Origin: Candidatus Moranbacteria bacterium UBA2282
GTDB taxonomy: Bacteria > Patescibacteriota > Minisyncoccia > Moranbacterales > UBA2206
Direction of reading: 5' to 3'
Assembly: GCA_002345745.1 (NCBI GenBank)
Contig: DDWQ01000011.1
Span: 21,995-85,994 of the forward strand
DNA length: 64,000 nucleotides
Part shown: positions 2,184 through 39,243 of the stretch, piece by piece
Position numbering within the stretch: position 1 is the stretch's first letter
How the letters are laid out: each line of letters opens with the position of its first letter
Notes under the pieces: model-generated
Told to the model about the DNA's origin: nothing
What the model saw: only the letters and a program-made list of their open reading frames with translations
Database searches by the model: none
Made by a program: the position numbers and the translations under genes

Positions 2184-4838
2184 ATGGAACTTTTTAATAA
2201 ACTTTTTGGCTCAAACCAGCGTGAGATTGCAAAGTTGCAACCAATTGTCGAAAAAATAAATTCCTATGACGCGACAATGCGTCGTTTGTCTGACAGTGAA
2301 TTGCAAGCAAAAACACCAGAATTTCGGGAAAGAATTGCCAAAGGCGAAACTCTAGATGAGATTTTGCCAGAGGCATACGCGGTAGTGCGAGAGGCGGCTG
2401 ATCGAGTCAACGGGACTCGGCCTTTCGATGTGCAGTTGATTGGTGGCATTGTTTTGCATCAAGGTAAAATTGCGGAAATGAAAACAGGTGAAGGAAAAAC
2501 TTTGACTTCAACTTTGCCAATTTATTTGAATGCACTAACTGGCAAAGGTGTGCATGTTATTACAGTTAATGATTATTTGGCCAAACGTGATTGCAACTGG
2601 ATGGGATCAATTTTCTATTTTCTAGGAGTTTCAGCCGCTTGCATTATTCATGATGCGTCGTATATGTATAAAGCGAAAGTTGTTGATACTAATGAAGTGA
2701 ATGTTGGAAACCTGCCTGCTGGCAGGCAGGTGGAAAATTTGCAAGAAGTGATGCGTCGTGATGCCTACAATGCTGACATTGCTTATGGAACTAATAATGA
2801 ATTTGGTTTTGATTATCTGCGGGATAATATGGTGCAAGCAAGTTCTCAGATGGTGCAACGAAAACTCAATTTTGCCATTGTTGATGAAGTCGATTCAATT
2901 TTGATTGATGAGGCGCGAACTCCACTCATTATTTCGGCACCCGATACTGAATCAACTAAATTGTATCAGCAGTTTGCACAAATTGTGCCAAAACTAAAAA
3001 AAAAGGAGGATTATGAAGTCGATGAAAAAGCAAAGGCCGTGGTCATCACTGATTCTGGAATTTCTAAAGTGGAACAAATGTTGGGTGTTAGTAATCTATA
3101 TGAAACGGGCAAGATAAATTTTGTGCATCATCTAGAGCAAGCTTTGAAAGCACAGGTTATTTTTCAACGAGACAGCGATTATGTGGTAAAGGACGGTGAA
3201 GTTATTATCGTAGATGATTTTACTGGTCGTATGATGCAAGGTCGCAGATATAGTGACGGTTTGCATCAGGCTATTGAAGCCAAAGAAAATGTCAAAGTGC
3301 AAAAGGAATCACGCACATTAGCAACGATCACTTTTCAAAATTATTTTCGAGTTTATAAAAAACTAGCTGGGATGACTGGAACAGCTTTAACGAGTGCAGA
3401 GGAATTTTTTAAGGTGTATAATGTTGATGTTCTAGAAATTCCGACTAATCGCATTATGCAAAGAAAAGATTTGCCGGATGTAATTTATAAAACAGAAAAA
3501 GGCAAATTTAATGCTATCGCAGAAGAAATAAAAAGAGTTTATGAAATTGGACAACCAATTCTTGTGGGAACTATTGCAATTGAAAAATCAGAATATTTAA
3601 GCGCACTTTTGCAGAGGACTGGCGTGCCACACGCAGTTTTGAATGCTAAAAATCATGAAAGTGAAGCTTCTATCATTGCGGGGGCTGGGAAAAAAGGCGC
3701 CGTGACAATCGCAACTAATATGGCAGGTCGTGGAACGGATATAAAACTTGGAGAAGGTGTGAAAGAACTGGGCGGTCTTTTGATTATCGGAACGGAACGG
3801 CATGAAGCACGTCGCATTGATAATCAGTTGCGAGGGCGAGCCGGACGTCAGGGCGATCCTGGTGCTTCACAATTCTATGTCTCATTGGAAGATGAATTGA
3901 TGCGTCGCTTTGGTGGTGATAAATTGAAAGATATGATGGATCGTTTTGGCTTGCCAGAAGATCAGCCGATTCAAAATGGCATAATTTCCAAATCAATCGA
4001 AAGTGCACAATCAAAAATCGAAGGTTTCAACTTTGATATTCGAAAACACGTGCTGGATTATGATGATGTTATGAATAAGCAGCGTGAAGTTGTGTATAAA
4101 AAACGACGAGAAATTTTGGAGATGAAAGATGCCAAAAGTGAACTCTTGAATTATATTAACGAGGAAATTGAAAAAGTAGTTTCCTTCAATTGTGCTGGTG
4201 ATGAGTATGCTTGGGATATGAAAGAGTTGAACACTAATTTTAATGCAATTGTTTTTGCCCAAGGAGATTTGACTGGCAAATTGGAAGAAATTAAACAAGA
4301 TGGTCGTCATAGCGCGGCGGAAAAAATTAGCCAACTAGTGGAATTTTTGATGGGCATTGCCAAAGAAGTTTATAATAAAAAAGAGCAAAATGCAGGCACA
4401 GAGCAAATGAGATCCATAGAAAAAGCAGTTATTTTGCAAACGATGGATATGTCTTGGATGAATCATCTGGATGAAATTGATTATTTACGCGAGGGGATTG
4501 GTCTGCGTGGCTATGGTCAGCGTGATCCACTGATCGAATATAAGCGGGAAGCTTTTGGAATGTTTGCACAATTGATGGATAGTATTCGAGCTAATATTGT
4601 TAGTACAATTTTCAGAGTTAATGCAGTTTCGTCGCAGAAGGAAACTCCGCAAGAGAATTTGAATTTTAGCGGAGCGAATGATGAGGTGGAACAATTTGGA
4701 ACTACTAAAGCAGTTGAATCTGGCAACGATAAGGTGTCTGTTAAAAAATCACCAATTATCAATGAAGACAAGGTCGGTCGCAATGATCCTTGTCCGTGTG
4801 GATCAGGTAAAAAATATAAGAAGTGTTGTGGTAAATAA
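2184..4838 (+). CDS. secA: preprotein translocase ATPase SecA
   Basis: DEAD-like motor motifs ([26 protein letters not shown]), 884 aa, and a C-terminal zinc finger [14 protein letters not shown]. Confidence 0.97.
2711..2730. repeat. GC-rich palindromic mini-element (CCTGCCTGCTGGCAGGCAGG) in-frame inside secA
   Basis: Near-perfect 20-bp palindrome encoding LPAGRQ within the SecA nucleotide-binding region. The same element occurs at 9651-9670 and 13083-13104. Confidence 0.8.
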
Positions 4839-9441: not shown

Positions 9442-9763
9442 TAAATCGGAAATTGAGAATAAAAAGTCTAAAATTGGCAGTGAAGAAGGTGCCGTTATTA
9501 AACACGATTTGAAAAATGCAGCTGCGACTGGTGATTGGCGATATATGACACCAATTGTAGATAAAGAAAAATGCACTGGTTGCACAACTTGCATGCCATT
9601 TTGCCCGGAAGCGTCAATCATAATGAAGGCATATAAAAGTGAGTCAACGGCCTGCCTGCCGGCAGGCAGGGACAAGTGTGATATTGACTATGATTTTTGC
9701 AAAGGTTGCGGAGTATGTGCAGCTGTTTGCCCAGCCAAAGCGATTACAATGAAGAAAAATTAA
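9416..9763 (+). CDS. porD: pyruvate:ferredoxin oxidoreductase delta subunit (2x[4Fe-4S] ferredoxin)
   Basis: Two CxxCxxCxxxCP motifs: CTGCTTCMPFCP and CKGCGVCAAVCP. Confidence 0.85.
   Translation: MKKHMTQYNKSEIENKKSKIGSEEGAVIKHDLKNAAATGDWRYMTPIVDKEKCTGCTTCMPFCPEASIIMKAYKSESTACLPAGRDKCDIDYDFCKGCGVCAAVCPAKAITMKKN
9651..9670. repeat. perfect 20-bp palindrome CCTGCCTGCCGGCAGGCAGG in-frame inside porD
   Basis: Encodes CLPAGRD between the two Fe-S motifs. Identical to the core of the element at 13083-13104. Confidence 0.85.
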
Positions 9764-11947: not shown

Positions 11948-12020
11948 GCCGATGTGGCTCAGTTGGTAGAGCAGCGCACTCGTAACGCGCAGGTCGTCGG
12001 TTCGATTCCGACCATCGGCT
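11948..12020 (+). tRNA. tRNA-Thr (anticodon CGT)
   Basis: Cloverleaf: acceptor GCCGATG/CATCGGC, D-arm GCTCAGTTGGTAGAGC, anticodon loop CTCGTAA, T-arm GTCGGTTCGATTCCGAC. Close to the E. coli thrW pattern. Confidence 0.85.
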
Positions 12021-12037
12021 CATAATTTTTTTAAGAA

Positions 12038-12784
12038 ATGGTAATTATGTTGGGTTTATTTCAAGATTTATTTTTCAATACGGAAACTCTGATTGCCACG
12101 CTAATCGGCTTTGTTGGAATTGCTGGAATGATATTATTTGTATCGTTGTATAAAATAAAAAATCCAATAACAAATCCTGTTGAGCTAAGTCAAAAAGATG
12201 CAACTGAATTGGAATGGAATTTGAATGCTGGTGAAAGGAAGATTATTAATAAAAAGATTATAATAAAATTATTTATTATAATAGTTCCAATTTTGTTTTT
12301 GTATCTTTTTTCTAAACGTTTAGAATTAGGAATTGACTCTAACAATCTTGCCATAGGATATCTGTTGTTTATTGCTGTGGTATTTGGACTAAGTTATTTA
12401 TTTATGGTTATCATTGCACCCAAAAATTTGCATTATAAATTGACAAATCAAGGGATAGTAGTGAATAGGGGCAATTCCGAAGGTTTTTTTACTTGGGATA
12501 ATTTTATTTATTTTTCTGGTAAATTTCAGGGCATATCACTGGATAATATAGATAGCGAGATACAAGATAGAAGCGTCATGAAACAGTTGAGGGATATTCG
12601 CGGGGAAATTTTTTATTTAAAATTTAACTCAAGAGGATTTTTTTCTAAGATAAATTTTATAGAGCGTATTTTAGTTATTTATACAAGGCCGGATAATTAT
12701 CAGAAGGTACATGCATTTTTAACGGATAAATTACCTCAAGAGCCAATTAAAAATTTAGGTTTTCAGAGTTATTATTTTAAATAA
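12038..12784 (+). CDS. hypothetical membrane protein
   Basis: Several predicted TM helices. No recognisable motif. tRNA-adjacent. Confidence 0.45.
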   Translation: MVIMLGLFQDLFFNTETLIATLIGFVGIAGMILFVSLYKIKNPITNPVELSQKDATELEWNLNAGERKIINKKIIIKLFIIIVPILFLYLFSKRLELGIDSNNLAIGYLLFIAVVFGLSYLFMVIIAPKNLHYKLTNQGIVVNRGNSEGFFTWDNFIYFSGKFQGISLDNIDSEIQDRSVMKQLRDIRGEIFYLKFNSRGFFSKINFIERILVIYTRPDNYQKVHAFLTDKLPQEPIKNLGFQSYYFK

Positions 12785-12960
12785 AAAAACATGAAAACGC
12801 GCATATGTATTTAATTTACATAATTTTTATAAAAAATAATATTTTTTATATCTAAAAAAAGAGTGCAGAGGAGAAGAAAAAAGATCTGGAGCATCTAAAA
12901 ATGGACGATTTGTTCTAATTTTTGGGAATAAGAATTTATTTTTAATGATTACAAAAGTAA

Positions 12961-13033
12961 GGTATAATAAAAAATAACATAACAAAACTATGAAAACATA
13001 CATTTGTGAAATCTGCGGGGATGCTTACATTGG
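12961..13033 (+). repeat. 73-bp perfect direct repeat, copy 1 (rubrerythrin promoter plus first 14 codons)
   Basis: Identical to 15136-15208. Contains a TATAAT -10 box and ATG-MKTYICEICGDAYIG. Confidence 0.9.
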
Positions 13034-13064
13034 AGATGGCACACTTCCGCCAGTGGGCGGATAA
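12990..13064 (+). pseudogene. truncated duplicate of the rubrerythrin 5' end (24 codons then stop)
   Basis: Translates MKTYICEICGDAYIGDGTLPPVGG*. The first 14 codons are identical to the intact gene at 15165. Confidence 0.7.
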
Positions 13065-13082
13065 ACTCCATGCGTAGGTCGT

Positions 13083-13104
13083 CCCTGCCTGCCGGCAGGC
13101 AGGG
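13083..13104. repeat. perfect 22-bp palindrome CCCTGCCTGCCGGCAGGCAGGG (intergenic copy)
   Basis: Direct reading. Lies 50 bp right of the 73-bp repeat copy 1. Confidence 0.85.
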
Positions 13105-13164
13105 GTTCGTTTCCGACAGGTGGCTCAGCATAAATCATAAAATAAGCAAGATTAAATTAAAAAA

Positions 13165-13506
13165 ATGAAAATTATTAAAGATGAAATTTCAATTGATGAG
13201 TTGCGAGAAATGTCAGGCAAGATGTTTGGTAATTTAGTCAAGGCAGTTGTTGATGTTGAGAAAAAGATTATGGCAGTAGATGCCGATTTGCATGCTGATG
13301 AAGAAGCTTTGCTTTTGGAAAATGGATCAGTACAAAAAAATTTGTGGGGTATTAATATGTACCCAGAACTAACAGGTGAGGATTTCGTAGAATTTGATTC
13401 TATGATAAACTTGCGTCCATCACAGGGCAATCGCAGTCGAGGAGTGGAGGATATTGAAATTCAAAAAGAAATTATAGTCATAGTTAACAAATTAGTGAAA
13501 AAATAG
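13165..13506 (+). CDS. conserved hypothetical protein (DUF-type, 113 aa)
   Basis: Clean ORF. The motif pattern WGINMYPEL...NLRPSQGNRSRGVED recalls an uncharacterised conserved family. Confidence 0.55.
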   Translation: MKIIKDEISIDELREMSGKMFGNLVKAVVDVEKKIMAVDADLHADEEALLLENGSVQKNLWGINMYPELTGEDFVEFDSMINLRPSQGNRSRGVEDIEIQKEIIVIVNKLVKK

Positions 13507-13839
13507 ATGGAAATACAACATAAAAATCTAGCCTCTGGTGGATGGCAAAAACTTTCTTTCTTTGAGCAAATGGCTAATATTGGGAGTGAGGTTGAGCGCA
13601 CAATTAAGTGGAAAAATAAAGGTAATGCTGAATATAGTCAAATGGCCTTTGATCGTGCATTAGAACTTTTGGATTTGACTGTCAGTATGGAAAAAAATAA
13701 AAGCCATCTCAAAGAATTGTTGCGCGCAAGAGAAGCACTGGCTGATTATTTTGTATTTGATAATGATTATCAATCAACGGATAAAAGCTGGCAAAATTAT
13801 TTTTATGCCTTTAACTTCGCGGCGAGAATAAATTTATAA
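13507..13839 (+). CDS. hypothetical protein (110 aa), translationally coupled to upstream ORF
   Basis: The ATG abuts the TAG of the previous ORF (TAGATG). No recognisable domain. Confidence 0.5.
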   Translation: MEIQHKNLASGGWQKLSFFEQMANIGSEVERTIKWKNKGNAEYSQMAFDRALELLDLTVSMEKNKSHLKELLRAREALADYFVFDNDYQSTDKSWQNYFYAFNFAARINL

Positions 13840-13856
13840 AAAATAATTTTTACAAA

Positions 13857-14018
13857 ATGAATGATGATAAAAAAATAATCGCTGAAATAGAAAAAATCTC
13901 CAAAGAATATTGGGAAAAGCTTGGTGAATTGAAAATGGAGCAAAATGAGGTAGTTCGTGAATATATTCTGAAATTGGAGGAAAAAAAGAAAGAGGAGTTA
14001 ATGAAAAAATTTGTTTAA
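13857..14018 (+). CDS. small charged/coiled hypothetical ORF (53 aa)
   Basis: ATG 13857 to TAA 14016-18. Not in the track. K/E-rich. Confidence 0.25.
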   Translation: MNDDKKIIAEIEKISKEYWEKLGELKMEQNEVVREYILKLEEKKKEELMKKFV

Positions 14019-14032
14019 TTATAGGAAATATT

Positions 14033-15142
14033 ATGTTTGAAGCAAAATCTGAAAATTCAAAAACAGAATCAGAAAAACCAAGGATTGAAAATGCAACTAA
14101 GGAAATTATCAGTCCAGAGTCTTTGGTAAAGCAAAAAATTTCTGAGATGCAGAATGGCACATTTGAACTGGAAAGAAATGGGCCGGAACGCATAGAAGGA
14201 GCTAAAAAATCGATTGGATTAAATGCTGAGGATGTAAAAAAGATACAGGATGAATTGCAAATAAATGAAAGGGTGTCTGGAATATCGGATAGAGCAAAAA
14301 AACTTTTTGAATTAGCACAATCGGCCATAAAAAAAGTTGTAGTGATTGGAATGGCGACGATGGCTTTTTCAGGCACAGCAGGAGGACATAATGAATTTAA
14401 TGATGAATTTACTATCAACTCTAATGCACTGGAAAGCATAAAAAATGATGCAGATAGAATAAAAAATGAAATTAAATCACATATAGGTAGCCAGGAATAC
14501 TTAGAGAAGTTGACAAAGGAAATGAATGGAGACAGGCAGGGGGCGGAAAATATACAAAAAGATCGCTTGAGCTATTTAGATAGTGTTGCGTCTTTTTTTG
14601 TAAATGATGTTAATCGTAGCTATGCGGCTGAAGTCTTAAGAATATCAGATAATCTTAATCCATCTATTCCTCAATGGCTGATTAAAATGATTGGCAATGA
14701 AGGTATGAAAGGTTTCTATAACTCCCTAGACCACAAAATTTTTTTAACTGATGGGAGTAATAATGAAACGGCTAGACATGAGTTTTTGCATGCTAGCACT
14801 AAAAGTAATTTTAGTATAACAAAAGAAGCAGGGAAAATTTTATCTGACTCATATAAGCCTCTTAAAAATGAAAATGATGAGTATTTTAGTAAATCTACAG
14901 AAAGATTAGTGCGCAAACAACAATTGGACCATGAAATGGAAGTGTTAGGAATTAAAAAATATGGTGAAAAATTTACACCAGAACATTATAGTAAGCTGAT
15001 GAAATTTTATAATGAGAAAAAGTTATCATCTGGTTCAAAGCAATTTATAAAGACTACAAAACCAGAATATTTTGAGAAGATTTTTAATGAAATAGCTGAT
15101 AATGAAGATAAAAGAGATGCAAGTAGCCACAATGTGGTATAA
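14033..15142 (+). CDS. hypothetical single-TM protein with HExxH motif (putative zinc-metallopeptidase-like)
   Basis: Central hydrophobic helix VVVIGMATMAFSGTAGG. ARHEFLHAS contains an HEFLH (HExxH) motif. No further family assignment is possible by eye. Confidence 0.5.
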   Translation: MFEAKSENSKTESEKPRIENATKEIISPESLVKQKISEMQNGTFELERNGPERIEGAKKSIGLNAEDVKKIQDELQINERVSGISDRAKKLFELAQSAIKKVVVIGMATMAFSGTAGGHNEFNDEFTINSNALESIKNDADRIKNEIKSHIGSQEYLEKLTKEMNGDRQGAENIQKDRLSYLDSVASFFVNDVNRSYAAEVLRISDNLNPSIPQWLIKMIGNEGMKGFYNSLDHKIFLTDGSNNETARHEFLHASTKSNFSITKEAGKILSDSYKPLKNENDEYFSKSTERLVRKQQLDHEMEVLGIKKYGEKFTPEHYSKLMKFYNEKKLSSGSKQFIKTTKPEYFEKIFNEIADNEDKRDASSHNVV

Positions 15143-15208
15143 TAAAAAATAACATAACAAAACTATGAAAACATACATTTGTGAAATCTGCGGGGATGCT
15201 TACATTGG
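15136..15208 (+). repeat. 73-bp perfect direct repeat, copy 2
   Basis: Identical to 12961-13033. Confidence 0.9.
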
Positions 15209-15683
15209 CGAAGAACGGCCAAGTGACTGTCCGTTTTGCGGGGCGGCGAAAAATTTTATTAAAGATGGTGTGGAAGCGCGACCATTTGTAAATCAGGTAA
15301 TTGAACTGTCAGAACTTTCCAGAAAAAATCTAGAAGAAACAGTGCAATTAGAATTGCACGCCAATGCCGTTTATCTGTGTATGGCGGGCAAAGCCAAGAC
15401 CTATGAAATCAAGGCAATGTATAAACGCATTGCTAAAGTTGAATTGGAGCACGCTAACATTGCTTGCAAGCTAATGAAGATTGCACTGCCGGCAGTTAAC
15501 CCAGAATTGTGTAGTGATGAGGACGCGGAAAATTTTGCAGAAACTATTAAGTTGGAAGAAAATGCCACAGCATTATATGCGAAATTTGCCAAAGAGGCGA
15601 CTGAGCAGGAAATTAAAATTATCTTCACCGCCCTGATGCAAATTGAAGCCAGTCACATAACGCTTATAAAAAATTATCTTTAA
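15165..15683 (+). CDS. reverse rubrerythrin (N-terminal rubredoxin-like CxxC...CxxC plus ferritin-like diiron domain)
   Basis: CEICGDAY...CPFCGA rubredoxin-type centre, followed by E...EHANIA / E..H helices typical of rubrerythrin. Confidence 0.8.
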   Translation: MKTYICEICGDAYIGEERPSDCPFCGAAKNFIKDGVEARPFVNQVIELSELSRKNLEETVQLELHANAVYLCMAGKAKTYEIKAMYKRIAKVELEHANIACKLMKIALPAVNPELCSDEDAENFAETIKLEENATALYAKFAKEATEQEIKIIFTALMQIEASHITLIKNYL

Positions 15684-16451: not shown

Positions 16452-17544
16452 ATGCTTAAAGATATACAAGAAAAACTAAAAAACTTACAAGCTAAAATCG
16501 CTCTTCTGAGCGACTATCTTTGACTTGCCGACAAAAGTACAGACTATTACAGACTTAGAGCGGACTAGCGCAGAACCTGGATTTTGGGATGATAGTCAAA
16601 AGGCAGCTAAGACTATGCAAGAGCTGGAGGAATTGCGCAAAGAAATCGCGGATCTCAGTCGCATTGAAACGGAAATTGACGAACTTCTGGAATTAGCTGA
16701 AATTATTACCGAGGAAAGTCTTGAAACTGCAGAAGTCGAAGATCGAATTTCAGGACTAGAAAAAGAGATTGAAAAATTGGAATTTAAAATCCTGTTGGGC
16801 GGAGAATATGATCGCAATGATGTGATTATGGCAATCCACAGTGGGGCGGGTGGAGTGGATGCACAGGATTGGGCAGAGATGCTTTTGCGAATGTATTTGC
16901 GTTGGGCGGAAAAAAATAATTTTAAAACCAGAGTGCTGGATGAATCACGCGGAGCCGAAGCAGGCATCAAAAGCGTGACAGTGGAAATTTCCGGACCATA
17001 CGCTTTTGGCTATTTGAAAAGCGAAGCCGGTGTGCATCGCTTGGTGCGACTTTCCCCGTTCAATTCGGATAATCTGCGTCAAACTTCTTTTGCACTAGTA
17101 GAAATTTTGCCCGTCATTTCTGAAATAAAAGACGTAAAAATTGATCCGAAAGATTTGCGTGTGGATGTCTATCGGTCTTCTGGGGCGGGCGGACAAAGTG
17201 TGAACACCACTGACAGCGCGGTACGCATTACCCACATTCCAACTAATATTGTAGTGACTTGTCAGAATGAACGCAGTCAATTGCAAAACAAGGAACAAGC
17301 GATGAAAATTTTGCGAGCCAAACTGCATCAAGAATATCTAGCAGAAAAAGAGTCAGAAAAACAAAAACTGCGTGGAGAATTTACTTCAGTGGAATGGGGC
17401 AGTCAAATTCGTTCCTATGTAGTTCATCCCTATAAAATGGTCAAAGATCATCGCACAAAATATGAAACAACCAATGCGGAAGGCGTGCTAGATGGAGACC
17501 TCACAGAATTTATGGAAGCCTACTTGAAAAATATTGAAAAATAA
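16452..17544 (+). CDS. prfB: peptide chain release factor 2 with programmed +1 ribosomal frameshift (shift at 16518-16524)
   Basis: ORF0 MLKDIQEKLKNLQAKIALLSDYL ends at TGA inside the canonical CTT TGA C shift site. The +1 frame continues DLPTKVQ... through the GGQ motif (SGAGGQSVNTT) and SPF region. Confidence 0.9.
16518..16524 (+). other. RF2 autoregulatory +1 frameshift site CTT TGA C
   Basis: Exact match to the conserved prfB recoding heptamer. Confidence 0.85.
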
Positions 17545-27809: not shown

Positions 27810-27889
27810 AAAGCAAAAATTCGGCAATGTTCGAAAAATCGTCAAAAAAGGGGCGGAAAAATTCCAATCCTTTTTTATTTTACCAAATA

Positions 27890-27923
27890 TTAACATAATC
27901 TTACGGTCGTAAGTTAATGTTGG
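27890..27923. repeat. palindrome-containing element copy A (core CTTACGGTCGTAAG)
   Basis: TTAACATAATCTTACGGTCGTAAGTTAATGTTGG. The first 16 nt are identical to copy C. Confidence 0.75.
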
Positions 27924-28015
27924 GAATGTGCAGGTAGATAAAAAATTAAATAGATAGATGTATTTGTGATTTGAGATAAATTAATTGTTATTTTAAATGT
28001 CAACGTTATTTAAAA

Positions 28016-28050
28016 TTAACATCTTCTCACGGTCGTAAGATTATGTTATG
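28016..28050. repeat. palindrome-containing element copy B (core CTCACGGTCGTAAG), inverted relative to copy C
   Basis: 30 nt identical to the reverse complement of 28621-28654. Ends 8 bp before the ATG of the 28059 ORF. Confidence 0.8.
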
Positions 28051-28058
28051 ATTGGGAT

Positions 28059-28619
28059 ATGTATAAATTCGGACCGGTGCAAAAGAAAATAATGATCACA
28101 CTTTTGGGTGGGGTTGCTTTGGGGATGTCCTCAAATCCGCGACAATATTTCAAGACTTTGCGGAAAGTGCGTAAAGATTGGAATAATGTCGATCAATATA
28201 GCTTCAAGCGTTCCGTTTTACGACTTTCAAAAGAAAAACTGATTGAGGAGAAAATTCTTCCGGACGGATCATTTAAATTGGTACTTACGAAAAAAGGCGG
28301 TGAGCAGGCAAAGAAATTAAACTTGCTAGGTAATTCCATTAAATTTAAATTTCCGAAAAAGTGGGACGGAAAATGGCGAATAGTTATTTTTGATATTCCG
28401 GAAAAAGATCGGGTGTTTCGAGATATTTTGCGTGGACATCTTCATAAGCTCAAATTTATTAAATTGCAAAACAGTGTCTTTGTTTCACCGCATCCTTTTG
28501 AAAGTCTTATTTTAGAATTAGTTGGATTGTATTCAGCTGAAAAATATGTACGGGTAATTACGGCATTAAAAATTGATAACGAAGATGACCTTAAAAAGAA
28601 ATTTTTTGATAAAATTTAA
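28059..28619 (+). CDS. putative transcriptional regulator: wHTH-like N-terminus plus Cas2-like / PaaX C-terminal-like domain
   Basis: C-terminal WRIVIFDIPEKDRVFRDILRGHLHKLKFIKLQNSVFVS matches the Cas2/PaaX_C beta-alpha-beta pattern (hhhhYDI...R..h...L...G.RhQ.SVF). The N-terminal ~90 aa is basic and helix-rich. Confidence 0.5.
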   Translation: MYKFGPVQKKIMITLLGGVALGMSSNPRQYFKTLRKVRKDWNNVDQYSFKRSVLRLSKEKLIEEKILPDGSFKLVLTKKGGEQAKKLNLLGNSIKFKFPKKWDGKWRIVIFDIPEKDRVFRDILRGHLHKLKFIKLQNSVFVSPHPFESLILELVGLYSAEKYVRVITALKIDNEDDLKKKFFDKI

Positions 28620-28620
28620 A

Positions 28621-28654
28621 TTAACATAATCTTACGACCGTGAGAAGATGTGGG
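28621..28654. repeat. palindrome-containing element copy C (core CTTACGACCGTGAG)
   Basis: Begins 2 bp after the stop of the 28059-28619 ORF. Confidence 0.8.
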
Positions 28655-31492: not shown

Positions 31493-33577
31493 ATGTTCAC
31501 AAAAAACTTCACGCAACTAAATAGAAATGATGCTGATATCGCCGGCGGTAAAGGCGCTTCCCTTGGTGAGATGATTCAATCTGGCATTCCAGTGCCAGAG
31601 GGCTTTGTCGTGCTGGCGGGAACTTTTGAAAAATTTTTGGAAGAAACTGATTTGAATGTTGAAGTTGATGCAATTCTGCATACTGTGGATCACAATGCGA
31701 TGCACACAGTTGAAGATGCTTCCGAAAAAATTCAAGCCTTGATCAAGGCCGCACAAATGCCAAGTGACATTGCGCAGGAGATTGAAAAAGAATTTGTGAA
31801 ATTGGACGCTGAATTTGTGGCGGTCAGGTCCAGTGCCACTGCCGAAGACGGCACCGAAAATGCTTGGGCTGGACAACTGGATTCATACTTGAACACTACG
31901 GAGGATAATCTATTGGAAAAAGTGCAACACTGTTGGGCATCTCTCTTCACCCCGCGAGCAATTTTCTATCGCTTTGAAAAAAATTTGCACAAGCAAAAAA
32001 TTTCCGTGGCGGTGGTGGTGCAAAAAATGGTCGCCAGCGAAATTTCTGGCATTGCTTTTTCTGTGCATCCTGTCACGGAGGATTATAATCAGCTTATTAT
32101 CGAAGCCGGTTTTGGCTTGGGCGAAGCGATTGTCTCCGGCTCGATCACACCAGATTCCTATGTGGTGGAAAAAGAATCACGCAACATTTTGGACATTAAC
32201 GTCTCCACACAAACTCGCGGACTCTATCGCGCGCAAAATGGCGGCAATGAGTGGCGAGACGTTCCCGAACCGCAAGCCTCATCGCAAGTGCTGACGCAAG
32301 AACAAATATTGGAACTGTCGGAAATAATCCTTGGCATCGAAAAACATTATGGTTTCCCGTGCGACATTGAATGGGCATATGAGAACAGTAAATTCTACAT
32401 CGTGCAAAGCCGACCAATTACAACACTGCAAAAGAAGCAGGAAACATCTGAAGAAAATATTGTTGAATTTGTTAATAAGAACAAATTTCACAAGCAATTT
32501 GTTTATTCCTTTTTGCCTACGGTTTCCAAAACGTTTTTGCCAATTTTTACATTTGAGGCAACTACAAACTGCTACTTAAATAATCCACTTGTGGGCAGAC
32601 TAAGATTGAAGAAATTGCCAAAGTTTGTCATCACACTGAAGGATGGTTATGAAGATTGGGAAGGCGGTGACATGCAAAAAATAACCAGGGATACAGATAT
32701 TAAATTTATTATCCAAGAGTGCCGAACGATCATGGAGAAGCATTCACAATTCACAGAAGAATTGTTGCAAAAAGATTATTCAAAAATTGATAACATTGAG
32801 CTTGCAGAAATATTAAGAAAATCAAATGAGGTTATGAAAGAAATTTGCCAGCGTCAAATATTTTTGATTCGCGATTTCATTGAAACAGAAAACTCAGCAT
32901 ACATCAAAATTTTGCCAGAACTTCGAGTTGAAATAACTAATTTTGTAGATAAATTTTACATTTCTTGCAATGATATTCTGACATCGCTAGCTGATAGGTT
33001 TGAGCAAATACCATGGCGAACTTTTATGTATGCGACTACGGGAGAAATAATAGAACTATTACAAGGCTCAAAAGCTACTGATGAATTTGCAAAAATATAC
33101 CAGCGTCACATTGCGTTTGTATTTGATGGAGAAAAAATTTCATTCATCACGGATTCATCGATAGTTTCAAAGGTTGATGAAATTTTGCACAAGAAAGAAT
33201 CAGGCAAGCAAGTGGAAATTACTTCAAATCAATTTTATGGCAACTCAGCTTTTGGCGGCCACGCCAAGGGGAATGTGGTCAAAATCACAGATGCTCAATA
33301 CAGAGATATTGCAAAATATTTGGAAGATAAAAAGGATTATATTCTAGTGATTTCTATGACTCGTCCAGAATTTATACCATACTTAAAAAACTGCAAAGCC
33401 ATCATCACCGACGAAGGTGGTATCACTTGTCACGCCGCCATCGTTTCCCGCGAACTCAAAATTCCTTGCATCATCAGCACCAAAATCGCCACGCAAGTTT
33501 TGCATGATGGAGATTTAGTGGAAGTGGATGCAGATAAGGGGATTGTGAGAATATTGAACAGAAAAAAGTTGACATGA
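31493..33577 (+). CDS. PEP-utilising enzyme family phosphotransferase (PPDK-N ATP-grasp nucleotide-binding domain + middle domain + phospho-His swivel domain)
   Basis: N-terminus DIAGGKGASLGEMIQSGIPVPEGFVV (PPDK_N / PEP synthase ATP domain). C-terminus GGITCHAAIVSRELKIPCII with the catalytic His. No TIM-barrel PEP/pyruvate domain, so the architecture resembles rifampin-phosphotransferase/YvkC-like enzymes. Confidence 0.8.
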   Translation: MFTKNFTQLNRNDADIAGGKGASLGEMIQSGIPVPEGFVVLAGTFEKFLEETDLNVEVDAILHTVDHNAMHTVEDASEKIQALIKAAQMPSDIAQEIEKEFVKLDAEFVAVRSSATAEDGTENAWAGQLDSYLNTTEDNLLEKVQHCWASLFTPRAIFYRFEKNLHKQKISVAVVVQKMVASEISGIAFSVHPVTEDYNQLIIEAGFGLGEAIVSGSITPDSYVVEKESRNILDINVSTQTRGLYRAQNGGNEWRDVPEPQASSQVLTQEQILELSEIILGIEKHYGFPCDIEWAYENSKFYIVQSRPITTLQKKQETSEENIVEFVNKNKFHKQFVYSFLPTVSKTFLPIFTFEATTNCYLNNPLVGRLRLKKLPKFVITLKDGYEDWEGGDMQKITRDTDIKFIIQECRTIMEKHSQFTEELLQKDYSKIDNIELAEILRKSNEVMKEICQRQIFLIRDFIETENSAYIKILPELRVEITNFVDKFYISCNDILTSLADRFEQIPWRTFMYATTGEIIELLQGSKATDEFAKIYQRHIAFVFDGEKISFITDSSIVSKVDEILHKKESGKQVEITSNQFYGNSAFGGHAKGNVVKITDAQYRDIAKYLEDKKDYILVISMTRPEFIPYLKNCKAIITDEGGITCHAAIVSRELKIPCIISTKIATQVLHDGDLVEVDADKGIVRILNRKKLT

Positions 33578-33645
33578 TGAATTAATCATCGTATTATGAA
33601 ATCAGATACTTATAAAATATTATAAACTTTTGTTTTAATAAAAAT

Positions 33646-34254
33646 ATGAAATATTTAGATTTTGCAGAGATATTTAAGGATTTTAACTCTTTTTCATTTC
33701 AGGATATTAAAAATGCCTTTGGTGATGTCAACCACTCACAATTGAGTGACTGGAAAAGGAAAGACCTTCTGCAATATGCAAAAAGAGGAGTTTTTGTTTT
33801 GCCAAATGCTAAAATTGACTTACATATTTTAGCTAACGAACTAAATTATTCGTATATATCCCTTGAATATGCATTGTCATATTATCAGATGATTCCAGAT
33901 GTAGCGCAAACCATTACTTCAATTTCAAAGGATAGAAATGAGAAGATTCACAATGAATTTGGCAGTTTCGTGTATCAAAAAATAGCTAAAGATCTTTTTT
34001 TGGACTACATTTTAGTTAAAAGTGAAAATGAGAAGAGATATTTTAGAATCGCGACTCCGGAAAAAGCCCTATTTGATTTGGTTTATTTACGGCAGGATTT
34101 GCAAACCAAAAACGACTTTGAATCTTTGCGTTTAACATTACCAAAGGATTTTAAAATATCTAAAATTAAAAAACTTTCCAGCTTAGTTAAGGCGAATAGA
34201 ATGAAAAGCAGGCTAAATAATTTAATTGATTATTTGTATGATTGCGTTAAATGA
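33646..34254 (+). CDS. AbiEi-like antitoxin (type IV TA, wHTH)
   Basis: Size, N-terminal wHTH-like segment and the position directly upstream of, and overlapping, the AbiEii-like gene. Confidence 0.55.
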   Translation: MKYLDFAEIFKDFNSFSFQDIKNAFGDVNHSQLSDWKRKDLLQYAKRGVFVLPNAKIDLHILANELNYSYISLEYALSYYQMIPDVAQTITSISKDRNEKIHNEFGSFVYQKIAKDLFLDYILVKSENEKRYFRIATPEKALFDLVYLRQDLQTKNDFESLRLTLPKDFKISKIKKLSSLVKANRMKSRLNNLIDYLYDCVK

Positions 34255-35011
34255 AATACTAAAATATTATTCAGCGACTGAAGTGAGGCATGTCAGGCAT
34301 ATTTTAAAGGAATATCTGCAATATCGAATTTTGAATATTGTTTTTTCTTCAAAATATGGAGATCGACTTATTTTTATGGGCGGTACTTGCATTAGAATTG
34401 TTCATGGCAATGATCGTTTTTCTGAGGATATTGATTTGGATAATTTTGATTTAACTGAAGAAAATTTTAGCGACCTTATGAATATTGTAAAGTTGGAGCT
34501 TGAGAAAGAGGGGATAAGCGTTGAGATCAGGAATACTTTCAAGGCAGTCTATCATTGCTATATTAAATTTCCTCAAATACTATTTGATAATAAGTTATCA
34601 CCATTAAAAGATGAGAAAATTTTAATTCAAATAGACAGTTTTAAACTAAAAAAGAAGCCGGGAACTGTATTGAAAATAATTAGTAAATTCGATGTTTTTG
34701 CAGAGATAAAAGTTTATCCGATGGAAATCGCTTTGGCACAGAAAATTCATGCCCTAGTAGAACGAAAGAGATTTAAGGGGCGGGATATTTATGATATCGT
34801 ATATTTGTATTCTTTAACGCAGCCGGATTGGAATTATCTGAAAAAATATTTAAATATTGGAAATCAAAAAGAGCTAAAAGAAAAATTGTTGAATTTATTT
34901 ACCAAAAAAGAATTACAAAGTTTGGCTAAGGATGTCGAACCTTTCTTGATTAACGCTAGAAAAGTAATTCAAATAGAAAAATTTAATGAGTGGGTTGAGT
35001 CTAGGTTATAA
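34226..35011 (+). CDS. AbiEii/AbiGii-family nucleotidyltransferase toxin
   Basis: MGGTCIRIVHGNDRFSEDIDLD matches the (K/M)GGTAL...R.SEDLD nucleotidyltransferase signature of DUF1814/AbiEii. Confidence 0.75.
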   Translation: MIICMIALNEILKYYSATEVRHVRHILKEYLQYRILNIVFSSKYGDRLIFMGGTCIRIVHGNDRFSEDIDLDNFDLTEENFSDLMNIVKLELEKEGISVEIRNTFKAVYHCYIKFPQILFDNKLSPLKDEKILIQIDSFKLKKKPGTVLKIISKFDVFAEIKVYPMEIALAQKIHALVERKRFKGRDIYDIVYLYSLTQPDWNYLKKYLNIGNQKELKEKLLNLFTKKELQSLAKDVEPFLINARKVIQIEKFNEWVESRL

Positions 35012-35127
35012 CTTAAAGCAAATATAAAACGATGCATCTATGACTACCAAAACCGTCATAAGTGTAATATAGGCAAAAAATACCTTATTTTAGTCGAAAT
35101 TTATCGACAGCATAAGTCCTTCAAATA

Positions 35128-35207
35128 AAATCGCCACCCAAGTTTTGCATGACGGGGATTTGGTGGAGGTGGATGCGGATAATGGGATTGTGAAAATTAT
35201 TAAATAA
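35128..35207 (+). pseudogene. 3' remnant of a PEP-utilising swivel-domain gene (last 26 codons only)
   Basis: Translates KIATQVLHDGDLVEVDADNGIVKIIK*. It is ~90% nt identical to the 3' ends of the neighbouring paralogs. No upstream ORF is connected. Confidence 0.7.
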
Positions 35208-35213
35208 ATTATT

Positions 35214-36689
35214 ATGGAAAATATTTTATTGGAAAAAATAAATCGTGAATGGCTACAAATTGCAGTTAGGCGTATGTCGTATCAAAAAATGCGTCTCTAT
35301 CATGACGGATTGATTCGAGGATTTAGAGATATTTTTGGTTATAATCAACATTTTTCTTTGGGCAGAATAAAAAATGGAGAGAATATTTATCATACAAATC
35401 GCCAAGAAGCAGAGGGTCAAGAAAAATTTATTCTAAATAAATTTATTGACACCAACTATATCAATTCAACCGTCAAAACACTTGGCAAAGAAATAGCATT
35501 GAATCTTGACAGCTATCTTGCATTTATCAAGTCCCTACCACAAGATTGGAGTGCCTATTCAAATAGTGAGCTAGTTGAAAATATACATCATCTGTATGAC
35601 AATGATCGCAAAGTTGAGGCATATTATTGGATTTTGTTTGATAATATAGAGAATGTTGCCGTGTTGGCAACTAGACAAGTAATGACTAGGAATGGCCATA
35701 ATGCAAAAGCGATAGAAAAAGCTTTTGCAGTCATTTCTCAACCGACTTTGATCATTCCGTTGGACATGGAAAGATTGTCTATATTGAAAGTGGCACTTTG
35801 TGAGAATGGCGCCAAACAAGAAACGCTGAAAAAGCACTGGGAAAAATTTGCTTATATGCCAATGTATGACATTAATTATGATTCACATGATTTGGAATAT
35901 TTCGAAAGAGAACTTGCCTTGATTGAAAAAGAAATTACCGTTGAGAATATTCAAGCTGAAATTGAAAATATAAACTTGAAATATTCTGATAGAAAAAAGC
36001 AGTGTTCTGATACTATCAAGCTTTTCAATAAAGATGCGGAAGTTGCCATCATGTTGGAATTTTTGAACGCTTTTGCCTCGCTCAAGGATCGCAAGCCCTA
36101 TGTTCGTGATCAAAGTAGCTATTTCACCAAAAATTTATTTGCTGAAGCTGCAAAGCGTCTGGACATTTCTTTATCCGAAGTTTTGTTTCTAACTAAAACA
36201 GAATTGGATGACGCATTGATTGGCAAACTTGAAATATCCAAATCAATGCTTGCGGAGAGAATCACAAGCAGCGCTTATTTATTTGAAGATGAGGATGTGT
36301 ATGTTTTCACAAAACCCGATGAATTAGCAATAATTGATAGTTATCTAGCGACGAAAAAAGATGCCTCAACTGAACTCAAAGGAGTGGTTGTGTCTAGCGG
36401 AAAAGCCGTGGGTACAGTGGCCATCATCATTAGTAATACTGATTTTGACAAATTCAAAGAAGGTCAAATACTCGTGACTAGCTCAACTCGACCTGATTTT
36501 GTACCGCTCATGAAAAAAGCAGTTGCTATCTTGACTGACGAAGGTGGAATTTTGAGTCACGCTGCTATCGTATCACGGGAATTGAAAGTGCCATGTATTG
36601 TTGGATTGAAAAATGCCACCCAAATTCTGGAAGATGGAGATTTGATTGAGATAGATGCAGCCAAGGGAATTGTAAAAATTATTAAATAA
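35214..36689 (+). CDS. PEP-utilising swivel-domain protein lacking the ATP-grasp domain (paralog 2)
   Basis: C-terminus GGILSHAAIVSRELKVPCIVGLKNATQILEDGDLIEIDAAKGIVKIIK. The N-terminal 400 aa are homologous to the middle domain of paralog 4. Confidence 0.7.
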   Translation: MENILLEKINREWLQIAVRRMSYQKMRLYHDGLIRGFRDIFGYNQHFSLGRIKNGENIYHTNRQEAEGQEKFILNKFIDTNYINSTVKTLGKEIALNLDSYLAFIKSLPQDWSAYSNSELVENIHHLYDNDRKVEAYYWILFDNIENVAVLATRQVMTRNGHNAKAIEKAFAVISQPTLIIPLDMERLSILKVALCENGAKQETLKKHWEKFAYMPMYDINYDSHDLEYFERELALIEKEITVENIQAEIENINLKYSDRKKQCSDTIKLFNKDAEVAIMLEFLNAFASLKDRKPYVRDQSSYFTKNLFAEAAKRLDISLSEVLFLTKTELDDALIGKLEISKSMLAERITSSAYLFEDEDVYVFTKPDELAIIDSYLATKKDASTELKGVVVSSGKAVGTVAIIISNTDFDKFKEGQILVTSSTRPDFVPLMKKAVAILTDEGGILSHAAIVSRELKVPCIVGLKNATQILEDGDLIEIDAAKGIVKIIK

Positions 36690-36693
36690 TCAT

Positions 36694-37719
36694 ATGGAAG
36701 TTAAATACGAAAAACATCAGCGTGATTATACAGTTTTGGCCTGTTCGGAAATTGCTGATGAATTTTTTGACCCAAGGATGAGTGGATTTTTTTCCTATGA
36801 TTCACATCCGGTTTTTATGTTGGTGGAAGATGGAATTTTTTATCATTTTGTAACTGAAAATGATTATTTAGGTTTGGCACTAGCCTATGCTAAAAAATAT
36901 CCCGAGGAACATTTGCAGAAATATGCACAAGAGTTTCAAGAAACATTAACGATTTATAGAAAATTTCTAATTCAAGCACATGTAAATGTGGCTGATGATA
37001 TTTTGAAGTTACATGAATACATGCGCATATTTTTACCGATAGTTATTATTTCAGCTTATCTTCCAATGTGTGGTGCAACCATCAATGAAAACACTATGGC
37101 ACTTTGCATGAAACTCAGACGAGAATATGAAGATGTACATAGAAATGGCATGACTTTAGAAAGGGAGTTATTAAATATCTTAGAGAAGGAATTATTCATC
37201 AAGCATGATTTTTTACGTTATTTGACCTCGAAAGAATTTAAGCATTTTCTAATTACCCATGAGTTGCCAAATGACATAGAAACAAGACAAAAATTTTTGT
37301 TGATGGAAGTTTATCGTGGAAAAGATACGGCATTTATTGGAAATGAAGCAATAGCTAAATTGAGAGAAATTGATGAACATAGAAATGTGTCTAATGTTCG
37401 GGAAATCAAAGGTAATGTGGCTTTTCGAGGCATAATAAAAGGCAGAGTGAAATTAATTAGATTAATAGAAGACGCCAATGATATTACGGAAGGTGATATA
37501 CTCGTGGCATCCATGACTGATCCGCGATACCTTCCTCTCATGAAAAAAGCTGGCGCTATTGTTACCGACGAAGGTGGCATCACCTGCCACGCAGCCATCG
37601 TCGCCCGTGAACTCAAAAAACCGTGTATAATAGGAACAAAGATCGCCACCCAAGTTTTGCACGATGGGGATTTAGTGGAGGTGGATGCGGATAAGGGGAT
37701 AGTAAAAATTATAAAATAA
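36694..37719 (+). CDS. PEP-utilising swivel-domain protein with short divergent N-terminal domain (paralog 3)
   Basis: C-terminus GGITCHAAIVARELKKPCIIGTKIATQVLHDGDLVEVDADKGIVKIIK. Confidence 0.7.
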   Translation: MEVKYEKHQRDYTVLACSEIADEFFDPRMSGFFSYDSHPVFMLVEDGIFYHFVTENDYLGLALAYAKKYPEEHLQKYAQEFQETLTIYRKFLIQAHVNVADDILKLHEYMRIFLPIVIISAYLPMCGATINENTMALCMKLRREYEDVHRNGMTLERELLNILEKELFIKHDFLRYLTSKEFKHFLITHELPNDIETRQKFLLMEVYRGKDTAFIGNEAIAKLREIDEHRNVSNVREIKGNVAFRGIIKGRVKLIRLIEDANDITEGDILVASMTDPRYLPLMKKAGAIVTDEGGITCHAAIVARELKKPCIIGTKIATQVLHDGDLVEVDADKGIVKIIK

Positions 37720-37724
37720 TTTGT

Positions 37725-39224
37725 ATGGGGGAAAAAACAGTTCTAGGTAATAATGCAATGATTTTGGATTATATTAATTCAAAAAATATATTTAAGCTTT
37801 ATAGTCGTAATATTTGTTTACAGATTAATGAAGTTTTTTTTAAATATTCGATGGCAGAGCTTAAAAAAAATAGAGGGATAACGTTTAGTTCATTATCTAT
37901 TAATAAAAACGGGTTTGTTGATTGTTATGGACAAACAGATGAAGCAGACGCTGTCAGTGAGAAAATCAAAAAAATTTATGAAAAATCAAAATCAATAAAA
38001 GATTTTTATGAAGATCATGCACTTCAATCATTCAATGAATATATTGAGTTTACCAAAAGAATGAATATGAAATATAGCGATAAATATAAAAAGATATCGG
38101 TCGATGAAATTAGAGGGGATTATGATAAATTTTCTAAAGTTAACGCAAAATTCATTAGCAATCTATGGTTTATTTATCTTTCAGATTCGCCGATTGATAA
38201 AATGCTAAAGGATGTGCTGTCAAAATATCTTGAAGGAATAAATAAAAAGCAGGATATGCAAGCATATCTTACTTTAATTTCAACTACTTTGAAAAAACCC
38301 GCAATAATTAGACAGCACAAAGAACTTTTGGAAATTGCATTAATAGAGGATGATGAAAAGCGCCAAATTGAGATCGAAAAACATTGTAAAAAATGGAATT
38401 GGTTTCCTTGCTACAATCCTTGTGATGATACATATGAATTAGCTCATTACACACATCAATTAAAGCAATACACTCCAGTAGTTGCCGAAAAAGAATTAGC
38501 TAAAATCAAGAAAGAAGAAAAAGAGCATGTAGATCAATATGACAATTTTTTAAAGTCAATAAAAGATGAAAAGTTGCATAAGCTTGTTAAAATGACAAAT
38601 GATATTTGTTTTTATCGCGAACATCGTAATGATTTACGTCGGGAGGGTCTTTGTTTGATTCGTCCTCTATATGAAAAGATAGGTATGATACTTGGATTAA
38701 ATGTAAAGGAGGTTTGTTATCTCACTAAAGATGAGATAGAAATATCACTTAAAAATGAAGAAATAAACATTTCTAAAGAAGATATTAATAATCGGATTTC
38801 AGAATACATTCTATTTACAAAAAATGAGAATTTCATATTAATTAGCAGTAGAGATACTATTAGTAGAATAAAAAAAATAATACAAAATAAGGATAGTGAG
38901 GATGATTTTCTCAAGGGCAGTTCAGCTGCTGGAGGTTTTGTAATAGGAAAAGTTTTTGTTATAAATAGCATAGACAAGTTAAAAAATTTCAAAGAAGGCG
39001 AAATATTAGTGACTTCTATGACGGCACCTGATTATGTAATGGCTATGAAAAAAGCGTCCGCAATCATCACCGATGAAGGTGGCATTACTTGTCATGCGGC
39101 CATCATTGCGCGTGAACTTAAGAAACCATGTATAATAGGAACAAAGATCGCCACGCAAGTTTTGCACGATGGGGATCTGGTTGAGGTGGATGCGGATCAG
39201 GGAATTGTTAGAATTTTGAAATAA
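37725..39224 (+). CDS. PEP-utilising swivel-domain protein lacking the ATP-grasp domain (paralog 4)
   Basis: C-terminus GGITCHAAIIARELKKPCIIGTKIATQVLHDGDLVEVDADQGIVRILK. The middle domain is similar to paralog 2 (HCKKWNWFPCYNPCDD vs HWEKFAYMPMYDINYD). Confidence 0.7.
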   Translation: MGEKTVLGNNAMILDYINSKNIFKLYSRNICLQINEVFFKYSMAELKKNRGITFSSLSINKNGFVDCYGQTDEADAVSEKIKKIYEKSKSIKDFYEDHALQSFNEYIEFTKRMNMKYSDKYKKISVDEIRGDYDKFSKVNAKFISNLWFIYLSDSPIDKMLKDVLSKYLEGINKKQDMQAYLTLISTTLKKPAIIRQHKELLEIALIEDDEKRQIEIEKHCKKWNWFPCYNPCDDTYELAHYTHQLKQYTPVVAEKELAKIKKEEKEHVDQYDNFLKSIKDEKLHKLVKMTNDICFYREHRNDLRREGLCLIRPLYEKIGMILGLNVKEVCYLTKDEIEISLKNEEINISKEDINNRISEYILFTKNENFILISSRDTISRIKKIIQNKDSEDDFLKGSSAAGGFVIGKVFVINSIDKLKNFKEGEILVTSMTAPDYVMAMKKASAIITDEGGITCHAAIIARELKKPCIIGTKIATQVLHDGDLVEVDADQGIVRILK

Positions 39225-39243
39225 AAAATACATTTTTACAAAT

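Follow-up and report, generated by a model that had tools for sequence, protein, structure and literature searches.

Transposons and insertion sequences (ISs) usually duplicate 2–15 bp of their target, and cis-mobilizable elements (CIMEs) are non-autonomous derivatives of tRNA-adjacent islands that are bounded by attachment (att) repeats. Linear DNA can also be integrated through one homologous and one illegitimate end, or it can circularize and enter by a single crossover (PMC3240628). Here we describe a locus of Candidatus Moranbacteria bacterium UBA2282 (contig DDWQ01000011.1), within a 64-kb stretch of DNA that we call the window, in which a block of four genes (a DUF5674 gene and three open reading frames, ORF2, ORF3 and ORF4) lies between two perfect 73-bp copies of the promoter-like region and start of a rubrerythrin gene. 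On balance, and with modest confidence, we read this arrangement as a recombination scar in which a block of about 2.1 kb from the homologous locus of another Moranbacterium was inserted at the rubrerythrin start, with a 73-bp target duplication.

The closest parallel is homology-facilitated illegitimate recombination (HFIR) or Campbell-type integration (PMC3240628). As in those cases, the block has no recombinase of its own, it apparently combines a homologous with an illegitimate junction, target sequence is duplicated on both sides, and the donor would be the homologous locus of a relative. It differs from them in being read from sequence comparison alone, in an uncultivated bacterium of the candidate phyla radiation (CPR), and in that the duplicated patch is only 73 bp long, includes promoter and start codon, and leaves the target gene alive. 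Duplications made by transformation in pneumococcal merodiploids are tandem duplications of 100–900 kb between IS copies (PMC3784515), whereas here we find a 2-kb insertion. With tRNA-adjacent islands and CIMEs the locus shares its place beside a tRNA gene, a tRNA 3′ fragment at the border, patchy gene content and bracketing direct repeats. In contrast to those elements, we found no integrase in it, its repeats consist of the rubrerythrin promoter and 5′ end rather than a tRNA 3′ end, and the tRNA relic differs in type from the intact tRNA. Transposon and IS insertions are likewise flanked by direct target duplications, but in this case the duplication is 73 bp long, and neither a transposase family nor terminal inverted repeats were found.

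The two repeat copies are identical at 73 of 73 nt, as a preliminary description of this DNA had claimed, and their starts are 2175 nt apart. The base that follows differs between them (A/C), and two further bases then match. The 73-bp repeat is real and non-random. No exact direct repeat in the window is longer; there are only four direct-repeat families of at least 30 nt in all, and the longest repeat in the shuffled window was 16 nt. Each copy contains a −10-like box (GGTATAAT), a leader extending 21 nt past the hexamer, and the rubrerythrin reading frame from its ATG (12990 in copy 1, 15165 in copy 2) through 14 codons and 2 nt. Copy 1 reads into a 24-codon ORF (12990–13064), again as previously described. 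Copy 2 opens the intact gene, whose product carries an N-terminal rubredoxin-like domain (PF21349, residues 4–30) and a C-terminal rubrerythrin/ferritin-like domain (PF02915, residues 54–168). A sigma-70 scan called no promoter at either copy because the −35 region is poor. An extended −10, TGGTATAAT, with a T supplied by sequence outside the repeat, is present in copy 2 only; the corresponding sequence at copy 1 is AGGTATAAT. Copy 1 may supply a promoter for the acquired genes, whose upstream context on the tRNA side would have been lost. Between copy 1 and the DUF5674 gene there are two GC-rich hairpins, the second flagged as terminator-like, which makes expression of the block from copy 1 uncertain.

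The arrangement is identical, with both copies, in two assemblies of the Joint Genome Institute (JGI; 3300040971 and 3300002702), on contigs of 116–118 kb. Among Logan contigs assembled with k = 31, those on the tRNA side in runs SRR1313261 and SRR1313264 stop at 12990, after the first 30 nt of the repeat, and those downstream in SRR1313259, SRR1313261 and SRR1313264 begin at 15179, 30 nt before the repeat ends. Such ends, 30 nt inside the repeat, are what a two-copy repeat longer than k predicts.

Relatives of the rubrerythrin in GTDB genomes belong to Moranbacteria and Parcubacteria (CPR). We fetched 78 related loci (L017–L094), and about 25 relatives share the order PORg, Fer4, PORa, PORb, tRNA-Thr(CGT), a variable stretch, rubrerythrin, ZIP (in some), RF2, FtsE and FtsX. 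The variable stretch between tRNA-Thr and rubrerythrin ranges from 20 nt to 4 kb. Two loci, L093 and L094, are the other members of the 90% cluster of the window's rubrerythrin, and both read tRNA-Thr, 23 nt, rubrerythrin, ZIP. The closest relative is L094 (rubrerythrin 85% identical in nucleotides and 91% in amino acids, ZIP 83.5% in nucleotides, tRNA-Thr 100%); for L093 the values are 82% and 88% for rubrerythrin and 84% in nucleotides for RF2. The loci closest by PORa, PORb and RF2, L037 and L023, are empty as well, with rubrerythrin directly after the tRNA. The order PORb, tRNA-Thr(CGT), leader of about 23 nt, rubrerythrin, ZIP is shown by this comparison to be the ancestral one of the clade.

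Given these empty sites in relatives, the 3.1 kb from 12022 to 15135 are a lineage-specific gain. The gain consists of two modules, each abutting a repeat copy: an ORFan gene with an AT-rich spacer, and the junction, tRNA relic and four genes. The reading offered by the preliminary description holds in part. Its insertion footprint with a long target duplication is supported, in that L093, L094, L037 and L023 lack everything between tRNA-Thr and rubrerythrin, which makes their sites emptier than the one it expected. The particular empty site it predicted, with rubrerythrin directly after the membrane-protein gene, was found nowhere; that gene is the ORFan and is itself a lineage-specific gain.

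Each of the four block genes has a homologue in the corresponding position, between tRNA-Thr and rubrerythrin, in L018, L032 or L057. In L018 the tRNA is followed by DUF5674 (88% amino acid identity), ORF2 (81%), a 68-aa ORF resembling ORF3, an unrelated 653-aa protein and rubrerythrin. The order in L032 is tRNA, DUF5674 (81%), ORF2 (74%) and rubrerythrin, and in L057 it is tRNA, ORF3 (60% identical), ORF4 and rubrerythrin. None of the three has flanking repeats at this locus, and L018 has no repeat of the rubrerythrin start. The preliminary description had named the same four genes without repeats in related genomes as one finding that would speak against it. These three loci come close to that, although the four genes are not found together in any one relative. 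Between the window and L018, third-codon-position identity is 0.54–0.60 for DUF5674 and ORF2 and 0.48–0.52 for PORb, rubrerythrin and RF2. Since this divergence is as saturated as that of housekeeping genes, the block genes are old and not part of a recently spreading element.

The block begins with a remnant of a tRNA-Thr gene, and similarity to relic units of relatives begins at 13039. An anticodon-stem vestige (13039–13071) is split by a GC hairpin, TCCGCC-AGTG-GGCGGA (13046–13061). Positions 13072–13126, minus a 20-bp palindrome (13084–13103), read GCGTAGGTCGTCGGTTCGTTTCCGACAGGTGGCTC, which matches the 3′ end of tRNA-Thr(CGT) of L017/L022 at 35 of 35 positions and that of the window's own tRNA at 28 of 35. 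The acceptor strand is AGGTGGC in the relic and CATCGGC in the window's intact tRNA. Neither ARAGORN nor Rfam called the relic a tRNA; Rfam searches of the whole window at gathering scores and of 12780–13200 at E up to 10 returned only two tRNAs and a chance match to MicA, and hence no known RNA family for the GC-rich piece. Folding of 13020–13140 gave z of about −1.9 on both strands; the two hairpins are real, but the fold as a whole is unexceptional. The 22-bp palindrome noted earlier at 13083–13104 is present and perfect, but it belongs to a tRNA-Thr 3′ relic with hairpin insertions and is thus part of something larger. The relic lies 36 nt before the DUF5674 gene; the intact tRNA-Thr lies 33 nt before the DUF5674 orthologue in L018 and 29 nt before it in L032, and the spacer between relic and DUF5674 is colinear with the L018 spacer (73% over 63 nt). 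The foreign type of the relic and the colinear spacer together mean that the block begins inside a former tRNA-Thr of another lineage's type, adjacent to DUF5674.

Units with the architecture of the relic stand directly after the intact tRNA-Thr in L025 (from 4194), L030 (1545–1682), L033 (7700–7860), L034 (7699–7800, minus strand) and L035 (1137–1290); L031 has none. They consist of a GC hairpin and a tRNA-Thr 3′ fragment, occur singly or as two in tandem, and no integrase was seen with them. In L030, L033 and L035 the tRNA end of the first unit is of a foreign type, CCGGCCATCGGCTC, which is also that of the window and L037, and the end of the second unit is of the host type. The tandem units look like att-site relics of successive integrations at tRNA-Thr. 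The palindrome itself, a GC-rich and perfect 20–21-bp element, CCTGCCTGCCGGCAGGCAGG(G), occurs three times in the window (2710–2731, 9650–9671 and 13083–13104) and also in L024, L031, L033, L034, L035, L040 and L042. Within the POR delta (Fer4) gene it forms an in-frame insertion of seven amino acids, STACLPA, which seven orthologues lack; it also lies in the tRNA relic and within a SecA-like ORF. Among the relic units, that of L030 is free of it, and those of L033 and L035 have it in the T loop. The palindrome behaves like a tiny mobile insertion.

At the other end of the block, ORF4 ends in AAT GTG GTA TAA, and the last 7 nt of the gene are the first 7 nt of the repeat. Homologues of ORF4 stop at the same point, with EQV as the last residues in L057 and EQA in L065. 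The window, L057 and L090 have 22–25 nt between the ORF4 stop and the rubrerythrin ATG, and empty sites have 23 nt between the tRNA and that ATG. At the right junction there is a GGTA/TAAT overlap with the ORF4 stop, and at the left junction there are the 5 nt AGATG. An insert whose right edge falls at a natural boundary, the C-terminus of ORF4, fits a homology- or microhomology-guided junction in the promoter/leader. The left junction, which lies 44 nt into rubrerythrin and continues with AGATG and the relic, looks illegitimate. A donor at the homologous locus is supported by the perfect match of the relic to L017/L022 and by colinearity of the block with L018 and L032 (DUF5674-ORF2) and with L057 (ORF3-ORF4-rubrerythrin).

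We propose that the donor would have carried tRNA-Thr, DUF5674, ORF2, ORF3, a large protein and rubrerythrin, in this order, at its homologous locus. The cell probably took up a fragment of about 2.1 kb as free DNA. The right end of this fragment would have joined at the edge of the promoter/leader, at the ORF4 stop codon, by homology or microhomology, and its left end, broken inside the donor tRNA-Thr, would have been joined illegitimately 44 nt into the recipient rubrerythrin. This could have happened by HFIR, with one homologous or microhomology junction and one illegitimate junction, or by circularization of the fragment followed by a single crossover, which would give the same product. 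In both routes the recipient sequence would be re-entered 73 bp upstream of where it was left, so that these 73 bp would be present on both sides. The duplication restores the promoter, start codon and N-terminus, so only such products would keep rubrerythrin and survive. Survivor selection of this kind would also explain why the duplicated piece is promoter plus start, since insertion into the first codons without it would destroy the gene. Perfect identity of the repeats implies a recent event, and 73 bp of it should allow RecA-mediated loss of the block.

Several points weigh against this proposal. No donor was found with all four genes in this order and with this leader. The junction chemistry is inferred, as are the order of events, DNA uptake and promoter use. 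The proposal also presupposes that this organism takes up DNA and has an active RecA. A true homologous crossover with a diverged donor predicts donor-type differences in copy 2, which has none; two identical copies of recipient type would call for a crossover at the extreme left edge of the repeat, a conspecific donor, or homogenization by gene conversion. In addition, the architecture of the relic matches the units of a distant lineage (L030, L033 and L035), which hints at a site-specific integrase acting at tRNA-Thr and not at random breakage.

The preliminary description had also called the block a cassette. The block is not a self-mobile cassette. No integrase or recombinase was found by Pfam and NCBIfam searches of all its ORFs or among the Pfam-annotated called genes for about 6 kb on either side. 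The insert lacks terminal inverted repeats; the best inverted match between its two 100-nt ends equaled the shuffle mean. PHROGs and PADLOC gave no convincing family, only two chance-level hits to ORF2 (E of about 0.004), two scans of viral contigs with ORF4 and DUF5674 found no relative, and the genes are resident at this locus elsewhere. An integron cassette would carry an attC at its 3′ end; the palindromes of the block are confined to its 5′ end, inside the tRNA relic, no integrase is nearby, and the same palindrome occurs within coding genes elsewhere. A diversity-generating retroelement would have repeats differing at adenines; the repeats here are identical, and Pfam and NCBIfam found no reverse transcriptase family among the ORFs.

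An integrase could still have acted from elsewhere. We consider it rather unlikely that a non-autonomous, CIME-like element owed its movement to a tyrosine or serine integrase encoded at another site and acting in trans, with the 73-bp repeats as attL and attR and with an element that mimics the promoter and 5′ end of its target so that rubrerythrin is kept intact. Perfect direct repeats that restore the target gene are a feature of elements integrating into gene ends, and the recurrence of tRNA-Thr relic units beside tRNA-Thr in L025, L030, L033, L034 and L035, with L031 empty, suggests integrase activity at the locus. Truncated rubrerythrin starts recur too: among 52 rubrerythrin starts scanned they were found in the window, L021 (two) and L065, and the gene of L075 is frameshifted. 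Yet these starts break at different points (nt 44 in the window, about 35 in L021 and 30 in L065) next to unrelated sequences, so there is no single site-specific core, and no att core is common to the window and the break points of L021 and L065. The lack of an integrase in the block or in called genes within about 6 kb also counts against such an element, as do the presence of the same genes at the locus in L018, L032 and L057 without att-like repeats and the saturated third-codon divergence of DUF5674 and ORF2 from L018. A broader version, which we regard as improbable, is that the tRNA-Thr/rubrerythrin junction is a dedicated cassette-exchange site of an unrecognized recombination system. 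Such a system would shuttle DUF5674-ORF2, ORF3-ORF4 and a unit with an NYN-domain gene (described below) between lineages into conserved gene ends, each insertion carrying or creating a gene-end copy, and the relic units and truncated starts would be its attachment sites. The presence of ORF3-ORF4 in at least five intergenic slots, and an insertion in L065 bracketed by a duplicated rubrerythrin 3′ end, can be cited for it.

Alternatively, nothing need have arrived at the time the repeat was formed. In a purely internal rearrangement, which we think unlikely, all modules would already have been present and copy 1 would either be a patch of 73 bp copied from a template, as filler DNA or by template switching, or be what a deletion left of a tandem duplication. 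Complete identity is what one expects of an intragenomic copy, the sequence of intact tRNA, island and tRNA 3′ relic has the layout of a classical tRNA-integrated island, and the 5 nt AGATG at the junction fit as well. However, only coincidence would have placed the left end of such a copy no more than 7 nt from the ORF4 stop and promoter edge, a tandem duplication requires two events with precisely placed ends, and the acceptor strands of relic and intact tRNA differ, so the two are not a simple attL/attR pair left by one integration. For the same reason we rejected two candidates, the intact tRNA and relic as classical attL/attR of a single event and a Campbell crossover within the tRNA homology; in either case the hybrid tRNA would be mispaired. 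It is very unlikely that the arrangement is an assembly artefact, in which two strain alleles, or a chromosome and a 2175-bp circle, share 73 bp and were chained into one path. In the k = 31 graph two paths enter the repeat node and two leave it, where a circle, an empty site and a two-copy path look alike, and one Logan contig (L005, from SRR1313257; 2205 bp, 13004–15208) comprises the block with a single copy of the repeat and closes on itself through an overlap of 30 nt. Against this, the same path with both copies occurs in the two JGI assemblies, every run with the organism contains both modules, and ordinary Illumina reads, like the larger k values used by common metagenome assemblers, exceed 73 bp. 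Moreover, L005 starts exactly 30 nt before the 3′ end of the repeat, as the branch predicts, and the tRNA-side contig of the same run (L016) breaks at 12812 in the 22%-GC spacer. The block and repeat would have been merged in that run because the stub left after the break would be clipped as a tip. We rejected L005 as evidence for a circle, since it starts at a k−1 branch point and its same-run neighbor breaks in the AT-rich spacer.

Table 1. Features of the tRNA-Thr/rubrerythrin interval, in window coordinates.
Feature	Position	Strand	Remarks
Intact tRNA-Thr(CGT), native type; left border of the variable region	11948..12021	+	ARAGORN; Rfam tRNA, 68.7 bits
ORFan membrane-protein gene, 248 aa (245 aa from ATG 12047); first lineage-specific module	12038..12784	+	GC 29%
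AT-rich spacer, 22% GC	12785..12960		Between ORFan gene and copy 1
Repeat copy 1	12961..13033	+	−10-like box, leader and first 44 nt of rubrerythrin; dead-end copy
Junction, 5 nt AGATG	13034..13038		Between copy 1 and tRNA relic
Foreign-type tRNA-Thr relic, anticodon-stem region to 3′ end	13039..13127	+	Hairpin at anticodon-loop position, palindrome in T stem
DUF5674 gene, 113 aa	13165..13506	+	Pfam PF18924, E = 1.2e-36; function of family unknown
ORF2, 110 aa, one tetratricopeptide repeat (TPR)-like repeat	13507..13839	+	Residues 34–72 match consensus TPR proteins
ORF3, 53 aa, small charged helical protein, partner of ORF4	13857..14018	+	60% identical to 56-aa ORF of L057
ORF4, 369 aa, central hydrophobic segment, C-terminal domain with HExxH	14033..15142	+	Last 7 nt, including stop, inside copy 2
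Repeat copy 2	15136..15208	+	Functional promoter-like box, leader, start of intact rubrerythrin
Intact rubrerythrin, reverse domain order, 172 aa, native to the clade	15165..15683	+	Pfam PF21349 + PF02915

The four ORFs lie where the preliminary description had placed them (Table 1). We found no paper that mentions DUF5674 in the literature, nor a relevant one on the SRA runs. Sequence searches of the PDB gave nothing for DUF5674 or ORF4, and for ORF2 only the single TPR-like repeat. ORF3 precedes homologues of ORF4 in L069 and L077 as well, and its match to the 68-aa ORF of L018 is weak. There are 71 homologues of ORF4, whose named sources are all Moranbacteria, Parcubacteria or Patescibacteria, and it matches no Pfam family. 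Residues H249, E250 and H253 are invariant among the homologues. An AlphaFold2 model of ORF4 had a pLDDT of 72; its top Foldseek hits, which were weak, are zinc metallopeptidases, and Foldseek against the PDB gave no match with E < 0.9.

The ORF4 family, often together with ORF3, occupies at least five different intergenic slots of the POR-rubrerythrin-RF2 cluster across genomes. Members were seen in this cluster in L057, L058, L065, L067, L068, L075, L077, L087, L089 and L090. Six of these homologues lie between PORa and PORb (L058, L067, L068, L075, L077 and L087), that of L065 lies between rubrerythrin and ZIP, and that of L089 lies before RF2.

The membrane-protein gene between the intact tRNA and copy 1 had no homologue except itself among 5.8 billion proteins and no Pfam family above the cut-off, and it is missing from all 78 fetched loci. 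The spacer that follows it gave only short AT-rich matches to related loci (E of about 1e-4 to 4e-3), with no meaningful similarity. We infer that this gene and spacer were a separate gain at the same hotspot.

Rearrangements at this locus extend beyond the window. Between L017 and L022, PORb is 98% and PORa 92% identical but rubrerythrin only 70%, and between the window and L037, PORa is 83% and RF2 82% identical but rubrerythrin only 62%. This discordance of the rubrerythrin phylogeny with PORa, PORb and RF2 suggests replacement of rubrerythrin alleles among Moranbacteria. L021 and L065 carry further scars similar in form to that of the window. In L021 (4301–8035) a 515-nt duplication of 88% identity, comprising an upstream gene and the rubrerythrin 5′ end, brackets genes for an NYN protein and a 525-aa protein. 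In L065 (3272–7805) a truncated rubrerythrin start lies beside the tRNA with a DDE-type transposase gene and the same NYN unit as in L021; in addition, 58 nt of the rubrerythrin 3′ end are duplicated (86%) and bracket the ORF4 homologue. Judged from these comparisons, the tRNA-Thr/rubrerythrin junction is a hypervariable hotspot that holds different small gene sets in Moranbacteria, and the locus is by the same token recombinogenic.

In L021 a 240-nt unit follows each truncated start and precedes an NYN-domain gene; the unit contains a promoter-like TTGACG-17-TACAAT as well as a GC hairpin that has a T run. The same 240-nt unit is found in L065, where it is split by the DDE-type transposase gene.

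A few other features of the window deserve mention. At 16452–17544, RF2 is split into ORFs of 23 and 339 codons around TAT CTT TGA C, which we take to be the classical programmed +1 frameshift site of prfB. Five copies (72–89% in nucleotides) of a gene 3′ end of 84–180 nt, encoding a terminus of the form KIATQVLHDGDLVEVDADxGIVKIIK before the stop codon, lie at 33383–39227; the shared ends indicate a paralogous gene cluster with a common C-terminal domain. A 35-nt element of internal dyad symmetry, ATTAACATAATCTTACGGTCGTAAGTTAATGTT, occurs three times at 27889–28654 and may be a repeated operator or terminator.

As a product of recombination the scar is ordinary, and it leaves the current understanding of recombination unchanged. 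As we read it, a fragment of a relative's homologous locus was spliced in and a short duplication rescued the interrupted gene, which would make this a clean, datable example of how Patescibacteria (CPR) may gain small gene sets without mobile-element machinery. The perfect 73-bp repeats predict an unstable, reversible polymorphism that should be traceable in the time series from which this genome came. The comparison also marks the tRNA-Thr/rubrerythrin junction as a hotspot of gene exchange in Moranbacteria, which helps in reading the patchy gene content of these reduced genomes.

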